Program-made: the position numbers and the translations under genes
Shown here: positions 10,020-13,717 of the stretch, piece by piece
Numbering within the stretch: position 1 is the stretch's first letter
Layout of the letters: every line of letters begins with the position of its first letter
Origin: Escherichia coli
GTDB taxonomy: Bacteria > Pseudomonadota > Gammaproteobacteria > Enterobacterales > Enterobacteriaceae
Assembly (NCBI RefSeq): GCF_044324785.1
Contig: NZ_CP172127.1
Direction: 5' to 3' (one strand)
DNA: 64,000 nt
The notes under the pieces: model-generated
Database searches by the model: none
Told to the model about the DNA's origin: nothing
The model's input: the letters and a program-made list of their open reading frames with translations, nothing else

Positions 10020-10268
10020 GCCTTTCCTTATAGGTCGGTCAGTGCATTCACCCCCACAAGCAGATAATAACTTTATCTGTATTTCTTTATATGATGTGAG
10101 CATATTCAGGAAAAATGCCCTTTCCTGACGCAGAGTTGCTCACTCAAAACCTTTGATTACTGCGGATAAAGTCATCTACTATTGTTTAACACATTCACGC
10201 GCTGCATGTATGTTCAGAAAATGTGCACGCTAAGATAATTAAACAAAATTGTGGTTACAGAGGTATCA

Positions 10269-11522
10269 GTGAGTCACTGGGCTACATTCAAACAAACAGC
10301 AACTAATTTATGGGTGACCCTACGGCACGACATTCTCGCGCTGGCCGTCTTTTTAAATGGATTGCTTATTTTTAAAACAATCTATGGTATGTCGGTCAAT
10401 TTGCTAGATATTTTCCATATCAAAGCATTTTCAGAGTTGGATCTCTCCTTGCTGGCAAACGCCCCACTATTTATGCTCGGCGTCTTTCTTGTCCTGAACT
10501 CCATTGGCTTACTGTTCCGGGCAAAGCTCGCATGGGCAATCAGTATCATTTTGTTGTTGATAGCGCTAATTTACACCCTGCATTTTTATCCCTGGCTGAA
10601 ATTTAGTATTGGATTTTGCATTTTTACGCTGGTGTTTTTGCTGATACTGCGCAAAGACTTCTCCCACAGTAGCGCCGCAGCCGGGACAATTTTCGCATTT
10701 ATTAGTTTCACGACGTTACTGTTTTACTCCACCTACGGTGCGCTTTATTTAAGCGAAGGTTTTAATCCGCGAATAGAAAGTTTGATGACCGCGTTCTATT
10801 TTTCGATAGAAACCATGTCAACCGTCGGCTATGGCGATATTGTCCCTGTTTCTGAATCAGCACGATTGTTCACTATTTCGGTCATTATTTCCGGCATTAC
10901 CGTTTTTGCCACCTCTATGACCTCAATTTTTGGTCCGCTTATCCGCGGGGGATTCAACAAACTTGTAAAAGGAAACAATCATACAATGCATCGTAAAGAT
11001 CATTTTATTGTTTGCGGACATTCGATTCTCGCCATCAATACGATCCTGCAACTGAATCAACGCGGACAAAACGTAACGGTTATCAGCAACTTGCCTGAAG
11101 ATGATATCAAGCAACTTGAGCAACGCTTAGGCGATAACGCTGATGTTATCCCCGGTGACAGTAATGACAGTTCAGTATTAAAGAAAGCGGGAATCGATCG
11201 ATGCCGGGCCATTCTGGCGCTGAGTGATAACGATGCAGATAACGCGTTTGTTGTACTCTCGGCAAAAGATATGAGCAGTGATGTCAAAACAGTTCTCGCC
11301 GTCAGTGATAGCAAAAACCTGAATAAGATTAAGATGGTACATCCGGATATCATTCTCTCGCCGCAACTGTTTGGCAGCGAAATTCTGGCGCGAGTTTTAA
11401 ATGGTGAAGAGATTAATAATGATATGCTCGTTTCAATGTTGTTGAACTCCGGTCATGGCATTTTCAGCGATAACGATGAACAAGAAACGAAAGCTGACAG
11501 TAAAGAATCGGCGCAAAAATAG
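10269..11522 (+). CDS. kch: Voltage-gated K+ channel Kch (6TM pore with TVGYGD filter plus RCK/TrkA-N domain)
   Basis: Start placed at GTG 10269 (VSHWATFKQ…) to give 417 aa; selectivity filter TVGYGD and Rossmann motif IVCGHS visible. Confidence 0.9.
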   Translation: MSHWATFKQTATNLWVTLRHDILALAVFLNGLLIFKTIYGMSVNLLDIFHIKAFSELDLSLLANAPLFMLGVFLVLNSIGLLFRAKLAWAISIILLLIALIYTLHFYPWLKFSIGFCIFTLVFLLILRKDFSHSSAAAGTIFAFISFTTLLFYSTYGALYLSEGFNPRIESLMTAFYFSIETMSTVGYGDIVPVSESARLFTISVIISGITVFATSMTSIFGPLIRGGFNKLVKGNNHTMHRKDHFIVCGHSILAINTILQLNQRGQNVTVISNLPEDDIKQLEQRLGDNADVIPGDSNDSSVLKKAGIDRCRAILALSDNDADNAFVVLSAKDMSSDVKTVLAVSDSKNLNKIKMVHPDIILSPQLFGSEILARVLNGEEINNDMLVSMLLNSGHGIFSDNDEQETKADSKESAQK

Positions 11523-11576
11523 AGTTTAAAGACGGAAGAGTAAACTTATTGGGCACCGCAATGGTGCCCAGTACAT

Positions 11577-11750
11577 TTAGATATTGTAGATCGCAAACAA
11601 TAACGAGTTACGCTGTTTGTTTAGAATGCACTTCCTGATGCTGTGGATACGCATATTTCGGCGCGATTGCCCCTCAAGCCAACGCGATTTACGTCGGCTA
11701 GCCTGACGCTGCATGCGCCAGCGCCCCACTTCCGTTCTACTCCGCTTCAT
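11577..11750 (-). CDS. yciY: Small arginine-rich basic protein (57 aa), resembles YciY
   Basis: ATG at 11748..11750 (minus strand) gives MKRSRTEVGRWRMQRQASRRKSRWLEGQSRRNMRIHSIRKCILNKQRNSLLFAIYNI; the track ORF 11577..11861 over-extends. Gene name is from memory and uncertain. Confidence 0.5.
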   Translation of the reverse strand: MKRSRTEVGRWRMQRQASRRKSRWLEGQSRRNMRIHSIRKCILNKQRNSLLFAIYNI

Positions 11751-11892
11751 GTTAACTACTCTATGCAATAACAGAATGGTCATTATACCCCCGCCCCCGA
11801 CGCTGACCAGTGCTTTTCCCGCGTTTTTATTTGCCAGATGAATCCATATGCGTAAACTCATAACAATGCGCTTTCAAAAGGATTTCTAATCT

Positions 11893-13717
<1,825 letters not shown>

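Follow-up and report, generated by a model that had tools for sequence, protein, structure and literature searches.

Positions 11523-11892 of the window, which here means the whole 64,000-nucleotide stretch of Escherichia coli DNA that was analysed, make up the entire intergenic region between kch and clsA; the stop codon of kch occupies 11520-11522 and the ATG of clsA lies at 11893. On the minus strand, this region holds a 94-aa open reading frame (ORF; 11577-11861), the translation of which contains HRVVN-MKRSRTEVGRWRMQRQASRRKSRWLEGQSRRNMRIHSIRKCILNKQRNSLLFAIYNI. Translation from an internal ATG at 11750 gives a 57-aa protein, MKRSRTEVGRWRMQRQASRRKSRWLEGQSRRNMRIHSIRKCILNKQRNSLLFAIYNI. The corresponding CDS (11577-11750, minus strand) consists of 57 codons plus TAA, with the ATG at 11750-11748 and the stop at 11579-11577. 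A preliminary description of this DNA had placed a 57-aa ORF inside the 94-aa one, and the two ORFs are as it described them. It had also described the ORF as convergent with kch and divergent from clsA, an orientation that is seen both in the ORF map and in the RefSeq annotation.

RefSeq labels exactly these coordinates, between kch and cls, as 'yciY: YciY family protein'. The identity with YciY had been proposed in the preliminary description, and it is borne out by the RefSeq coordinates, by the NCBIfam model NF033701, which matches the protein with 109.8 bits (cut-off, 30 bits) and aligns residues 1-55 with profile positions 1-55 of 56, and by the yciY protein of K-12 (PMC4909307), with which the protein of the window is identical. 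Homologues of YciY bear the precomputed Pfam label PF26518:YciY; the search of YciY against the local Pfam copy gave no match, probably since this copy does not contain the PF26518 model. We conclude, with near certainty, that the 57-codon ORF is yciY, a monocistronic and already annotated E. coli gene. It is known from the K-12 and RefSeq annotations, both NCBIfam and Pfam have a model dedicated to it, and experiments have shown that it is translated.

The gene is found in essentially every E. coli genome. A 601-bp query over the region had matches in 5,420 of 5,426 complete E. coli genomes, and RefSeq annotates yciY in about 5,420 of the 5,426. With the yciY CDS alone as query, 5,421 E. coli genomes had a match of at least 95% identity, and the annotation was the same throughout. 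Plasmid-labelled records carry 13 of the ~5,430 E. coli matches to this chromosomal region, and in NZ_CP196347.1 the yciY CDS is broken up over two places, possibly because of an insertion.

Translation of yciY is demonstrated by experiment, namely by mapping of its start site and by a Venus fusion. Nakahigashi et al. (2016) list the exact 57-aa sequence as K-12 yciY, and their supplementary table tags it as 'New protein (2014)' (PMC4909307). Ribosome profiling with tetracycline as the inhibitor (TetRP) gave a start-site signal of 192.4 at exactly this ATG, which is comparable to the signals of yneM and yncL, and a chromosomal YciY-Venus fusion (IVP3) was the positive control when expression of small ORFs was assayed in LB and in glucose minimal medium (PMC4909307). 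Ribosome profiling or tagging was one of the checks that the preliminary description had called for, and the published peak at the ATG and the Venus fusion are evidence of these two kinds. The same supplement gives yciY a value of -3.02, less negative than most adjacent rows (PMC4909307); this value is unlabelled, and we take it to be a Shine-Dalgarno (SD) score. The small-protein verification study of 2008 covered proteins of 16-50 aa, according to EcoGene 3.0. With 57 aa, YciY lies just beyond the 50-aa limit of most small-protein surveys, and this may be why it was passed over.

Selection on the frame was analysed in relatives of E. coli. When one genome was scanned for each species, relatives turned up in 319 species; 80 loci were kept. 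Selection statistics were calculated over the first 53 codons in these 80 other enterobacterial genomes, with the window sequence as the reference for pairwise dN/dS. Pairwise dN/dS was 0.04-0.12, with mean pN 0.088 and mean pS 0.640. The minor-allele fractions at the three codon positions were 0.106, 0.058 and 0.321, so that third positions are 3-5 times more variable. The two alternative frames showed the reverse, with pN of about 0.23 and pS of about 0.1. The start methionine M1 is invariant, and the protein is 57 aa long in 73 and 59 aa long in 8 of the 81 genomes. Residues 1-31 (MKRSRxEVxRWRMxRQ..RR..RWLExQSRR) form an uninterrupted block of strongest conservation, in which W11 and W24 do not vary. 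The C-terminal third remains hydrophobic although it evolves faster, and it is also under purifying selection (pN 0.185, pS 0.732). Thus, the yciY frame is under strong purifying selection, beyond what is expected of a chance ORF. The preliminary description had named lack of frame conservation in related genomes as the sign of a false gene, whereas dN/dS in the enterobacterial genomes is only about 0.04-0.12. Purifying selection in frame and the evidence of translation together indicate that yciY is a real protein-coding gene.

The longer frame is different. Its 37-codon in-frame upstream extension (11751-11861, minus strand) is non-coding and corresponds to the 5' UTR and promoter of yciY and to the promoter region of clsA. 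Codon-position variability in the extension is flat (0.246/0.225/0.225), its length differs from that in E. coli by a number that is not a multiple of three in 72% of genomes, in-frame stops occur upstream of yciY at many different distances across genomes, and an upstream start codon is lacking altogether in 33 of 81 genomes. Amino-acid conservation is absent before M38 of the long form and starts abruptly there, and the NF033701 match to the 94-aa form also begins at residue 38. The 94-aa ORF was therefore rejected as a true product, because it shows no codon periodicity, frame-shifting indels and variable stops, and has the yciY promoter candidate within it. It is a spurious ORF, an artefact of choosing the longest ORF. 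This is what the preliminary description had held, and the start of match and conservation at M38, the variable stops, the flat codon periodicity, the 72% frame-shifting and the internal promoter candidate all speak for it. The same artefact affects two neighbouring calls. The longest ORF of kch (10251-11522) has 423 aa and starts with GTG at 10251, while RefSeq gives 417 aa from 10269; that of yciU (13310-13717) has 135 aa and starts with GTG at 13310, while RefSeq gives 109 aa from 13388.

Upstream of yciY, a consensus scan found a sigma-70-type promoter candidate (11782-11809, minus strand; score 10/12) with the -35 element TGGTCA at 11809-11804 and the -10 element TATAAT at 11787-11782. 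The spacer of 16 nt is G-rich, and an 11-nt G-run, GGGGGCGGGGG, at 11788-11798 fills it immediately upstream of the -10 element. TATAAT is invariant in at least 98% of the 81 genomes, and the -35 element is also conserved in the 81-genome alignment. On the opposite strand lies a promoter candidate for clsA (11831-11858, plus strand; score 9/12), with -35 TTGCCA at 11831-11836 and -10 TAAACT at 11853-11858; both of its blocks are highly conserved in the 81 genomes. The two candidates stand back to back, with the -35 hexamers only ~21 bp apart. It appears that yciY is transcribed from its own conserved, putative sigma-70-type promoter. Because this promoter candidate sits within the extension, a transcript that starts from it would be unable to encode the extension. 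A weak SD-like sequence, AGAGUAG (11756-11762, minus strand), was read from the sequence; its AGAG, which ends 8 nt before the ATG, is conserved across the 81 aligned genomes. Neither the yciY nor the clsA 5' UTR folds better than its shuffles.

Downstream, a GC-rich hairpin lies between the convergent stops of kch and yciY (11547-11573, with no strand assigned; 8-bp core stem 11550-11557/11563-11570, loop 11558-11562). It begins 3 nt past the yciY stop and 24 nt past the kch stop, and has 11 pairs when the plus strand is folded. The folding energies are -17.7 kcal/mol (minus strand) and -20.9 kcal/mol (plus strand), with z of about -4, and none of 200 shuffles was as good. The terminator scan did not call this hairpin because its T-runs are weak. 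It is nevertheless plausibly, and likely, a bidirectional terminator, and in Escherichia the yciY transcript would end at this hairpin, which would be common to the convergent kch. The yciY locus showed neither a conserved RNA structure nor an Rfam family. An Rfam scan of 11000-12400 returned nothing real; its only hit was CRISPR-DR35 inside kch (11430-11465, plus strand; 21.8 bits, where the gathering score is 35; E=0.23), which was rejected as a chance match since there is no repeat array.

Every one of the 80 Enterobacteriaceae loci has clsA divergently upstream of yciY, with an ATG-to-ATG distance of 136-146 nt, and the most divergent members (Morganella, Brenneria/Pectobacteriaceae and another lineage) have the same arrangement at 190-254 nt. 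Inserted genes, such as kch and a methyl-accepting chemotaxis protein (MCP) gene, are found downstream of yciY and never between yciY and clsA. kch itself stands downstream of yciY and ahead of yciI only in Escherichia (loci L002-L006 and L079, compared with all other loci), so it looks like a lineage-specific insertion at this spot. In other genera, the downstream neighbour is yciI or tonB, a chemoreceptor (MCP) gene, or an unrelated gene. Since the downstream neighbour differs between genera, yciY has no conserved operon partner. The locus L043 (Kluyvera genomosp. 3, CP022114.1) has an intact YciY, and its ClsA is only 67.6% identical to that of E. coli; in other Kluyvera the identity is about 93%. 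Indels in the assembly could account for this divergence, or clsA may be degraded.

These observations bear on the idea that yciY is a leader or arrest peptide or another cis-regulatory ORF, in which the act of translation or the nascent peptide would matter and not the finished protein. YciY is polybasic, and its contiguous conservation over the first ~31 residues covers about the length of the exit tunnel, as might be expected of such a peptide. But there is no conserved downstream gene to be regulated, as the neighbour may be kch, yciI/tonB, an MCP gene or others, and a terminator-like hairpin follows 3 nt past the stop. In addition, a full-length C-terminal Venus fusion is expressed, and the C-terminal third of the protein is itself under purifying selection, as the pN and pS values above show. 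This makes a leader peptide extremely improbable.

In distribution, YciY is confined to one bacterial order. An HMM search of 1.84 billion representative proteins gave 38 clusters. All inspected clusters were YciY or fragments of it, and one 819-aa match consisted of a 13-residue stretch only. The named clusters are all from Enterobacterales (Enterobacteriaceae, Morganella, Providencia, Brenneria, Pectobacterium, Erwinia and Rouxiella), and no homologue outside Enterobacterales was found among the 1.84 billion representatives. Two records are labelled under unrelated phyla. One (L074; CACSKA010000003.1, labelled Chryseobacterium sp. 18061) has a typical enterobacterial yciY-clsA arrangement with a ClsA 93% identical to that of E. 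coli, and the other (P0043; a 252-bp contig labelled Listeria monocytogenes) has a typical enterobacterial sequence of this locus. These labels most likely reflect contamination or mislabelling.

YciY is a strongly basic protein. It contains 13 Arg and 4 Lys, that is 17 basic residues and not the 15 that the preliminary description had counted, against two acidic residues (both Glu), which gives a net charge of about +15, a pI of about 12 and a GRAVY of -1.14. Gln, Asn and Ser make up 25% of the residues, and Arg exceeds Lys by 13 to 4. Rare codons (AGA, AGG, CGA twice and CGG) encode five of the 13 Arg. The conserved part carries within it a pseudo-repeat of the form RW-x(3-5)-Q-x(0-1)-SRR, whose two copies, RWRMQRQASRR (residues 10-20) and RWLEGQSRR (residues 23-31), lie 13 residues apart. 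AlphaFold2, with a 32-sequence alignment, predicted one helix over residues 5-56 with a mean pLDDT of 90; such a high pLDDT for an isolated helix would reflect helix propensity and is not proof of a fold.

What kind of helix this might be was judged from its hydrophobicity and periodicity. An amphipathic helix at the membrane surface was rejected, because the maximal 18-residue hydrophobic moment (0.35) is smaller than the shuffle mean (0.43) and 81% of shuffles reach the observed value or more. A 100-degree (3.6-residue) periodicity of hydrophobicity is absent, and conservation is likewise aperiodic at 3.6 or 3.5 residues. A coiled coil or bZIP-like dimer was also rejected, as power at 95-107 degrees is not above that of shuffles (fraction at or above the observed value, 0.63 overall and 0.95 for residues 31-57), and YciY has neither a heptad pattern nor the N-x7-R signature of bZIP proteins. 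Without amphipathicity and without helical or heptad periodicity, both a membrane-surface helix and a coiled coil are disfavoured. No transmembrane segment is present in YciY, and with no hydrophobic segment a type I toxin or membrane small protein was rejected too. 'SRRKSRW' was considered as a twin-arginine signal peptide and discarded, as no hydrophobic region comes after it.

These properties have to be set against a role connected with cardiolipin. According to this explanation, the Arg/Trp-rich helix would bind an anionic phospholipid (cardiolipin or phosphatidylglycerol) or ClsA and would modulate or report cardiolipin synthesis, and yciY would be co-regulated with clsA by way of the divergent promoter region that they share. 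In its favour are the strict linkage of yciY with clsA, seen in 80 of 80 loci and kept at the longer distance in Morganella, Brenneria and the other lineage, and the fact that insertions near yciY fall downstream and never on the clsA side. YciY has an invariant W11 and W24 and a hydrophobic C-terminal LLFA patch, and Arg/Trp-rich peptides are able to bind anionic lipids too. In lpxM or lpxL backgrounds, clsA is an essential gene (PMC8745692). On the other hand, the helix lacks an amphipathic face, its moment being below the shuffle mean, mean hydrophobicity is near zero or negative over residues 1-35, and there is no hydrophobic periodicity and, in keeping with the low GRAVY, no transmembrane segment. 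Moreover, the neighbourhood oppF-yciU-clsA-yciY-yciI-tonB is syntenic as a whole, and the 140-bp divergent promoter region is hard to split. For these two reasons, the adjacency of yciY and clsA may be historical and not functional. We therefore regard a cardiolipin link as unlikely.

A second neighbour, yciU, offers another explanation, in which YciY would be the polycationic partner or target of the double-stranded DNA (dsDNA) mimic YciU; the mimic would either sequester it or vie with nucleic acid for its binding. YciU is encoded directly after clsA (13388-13717, plus strand) and has a net charge of -23 and a pI of 4.05, compared with about +15 for YciY. yciU stands beside clsA in 80 of 80 loci, and also, as DUF440, in Morganella, Brenneria and another lineage (L082, L084, L085). 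The Haemophilus influenzae homologue of YciU, HI1450, mimics dsDNA and binds HU-alpha (Kd about 3 uM; PMC3643605). This explanation draws on charge complementarity and proximity only, and the proximity is weak evidence because the entire neighbourhood is syntenic. When a YciU-linker-YciY fusion was modelled by AlphaFold2 with a paired 28-row alignment, pLDDT was 43 and pTM 0.25, with YciU itself unfolded in the model, so that the model speaks neither for nor against the pairing. The HI1450 family is distributed more widely than Enterobacterales, to which YciY is confined, and this counts against the pairing, as YciU would then have no need of YciY. YciY as a partner of YciU thus seems very unlikely. 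An equally doubtful extension would make yciY-clsA-yciU a conserved functional trio, in which YciY would act as a ligand or antagonist of YciU, or as a nucleic-acid- or lipid-binding regulator that couples the state of the nucleoid or RNA to cardiolipin synthesis through the shared divergent promoter; synteny and charge complementarity are its only basis.

Homology searches gave no relative of YciY with known function, by sequence or by fold. In a profile search of the PDB, the best match was the N-terminal helix of mitochondrial uS14 at E=0.18, and no bacterial chain was matched, E. coli ribosome entries included. A direct hhalign comparison of YciY with E. coli uS14 gave a probability of 0.2%. 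Foldseek of YciY against the PDB returned zero matches, as is expected for a lone helix. No families were found in PHROGs and PADLOC at E<=1, and a small protein of a phage or a defence system was rejected on this result. In the literature searched, no function is assigned to YciY, and there is no mention of b4595.

A ribosome-associated protein is another candidate to be weighed, either a hibernation or assembly factor or an accessory protein of the small subunit like RMF or Sra. RMF has 55 aa and Sra 45 aa, and YciY is like both in size and charge; the weak profile match to the mitochondrial uS14 helix (E=0.18) also points this way. This match is not significant, however, and is gone against E. 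coli uS14, where hhalign gives 0.2%. Furthermore, no PDB chain, E. coli ribosome entries included, matches YciY, the protein is limited to one bacterial order, and yciY is not mentioned in a stationary-phase ribosome proteome supplement. The rare Arg codons and the weak SD point to low abundance, which also does not fit this role and suggests that YciY is regulatory rather than structural. Absence from every solved structure, many E. coli ribosomes included, makes a stoichiometric or constitutive role as a ribosomal protein unlikely. Taken together, we consider a ribosome-associated factor quite unlikely.

In the reading that we prefer, YciY would be a polycationic helix of low abundance whose ligand is nucleic acid, more probably RNA than DNA. 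We give this reading a probability of about 0.4-0.45, inferred from composition and predicted helix geometry. The preliminary description had suggested, from the composition, a peptide that binds either nucleic acid or the ribosome; composition and helix geometry would favour the first of these. A dominance of Arg over Lys, a quarter of Gln, Asn and Ser, and two invariant Trp would best fit nucleic-acid binding of the arginine-rich-motif (ARM) type. As the helix is non-amphipathic and aperiodic, every face of the N-terminal two-thirds appears to be constrained, as in a groove or pocket, and this suggests that all faces of this part touch a partner. The preferred mechanism would be as follows. 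Free YciY is probably disordered and would form a single long alpha-helix on binding to a polyanion. The partner would most likely be nucleic acid, with RNA ahead of DNA, and YciY would bind it as arginine-rich-motif peptides do. Binding would take place through the invariant N-terminal 31 residues, and the more hydrophobic and faster-evolving C-terminal third may provide a secondary contact.

Since yciY is already known, it counts for little as a discovery; its value is that it illustrates clearly how calling the longest ORF (94 aa) can mask the true small gene (57 aa). Strong purifying selection acts on its protein, which occurs throughout Enterobacterales and in essentially every E. coli genome. 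Its absolute linkage to clsA and to the acidic DNA mimic YciU is a lead to its function.

Among known systems, the closest is the YciY family itself (NF033701, PF26518). The protein of the window is the same as its K-12 member in sequence, and agrees with the family in length, neighbours and distribution at the level of the order; it is the type member. NCBIfam classes this model as 'hypoth_equivalog'. Small membrane-protein regulators resemble yciY in genetic setting. CydX, AcrZ and MgtS are single-pass hydrophobic helices encoded beside the membrane enzymes or transporters that they modulate, and yciY is likewise a long-overlooked small ORF tightly linked to the gene of a membrane enzyme, clsA. 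YciY differs from them in that it is strongly hydrophilic (GRAVY -1.14) and has no transmembrane segment. The small ribosome-related proteins RMF, Sra/bS22, bS21 and bL34 are like YciY in size (45-71 aa) and in their very high pI, whereas YciY shows no detectable sequence similarity to them, is absent from solved ribosomes and has a far narrower phylogenetic range. The RNA-binding ARM helices of lambda N, HIV-1 Rev and Tat are similar in another way, as they are Arg-dominated helices with Gln, Asn, Ser and Trp and with basic residues on all faces. The mark of this class is an Arg-rich helical segment, and YciY has one, with 13 Arg in 57 residues and a helix predicted at pLDDT 90, although it is three times longer than a typical ARM. 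In an hhalign comparison with the HIV-1 Rev ARM plus 'IHSI', 19 columns aligned with 53% identity at a probability of 4%, which is chance level, so the resemblance to Rev is compositional and not homology. ARM helices form a functional class and not a family, and the comparison is meant in the sense that YciY may work like them.
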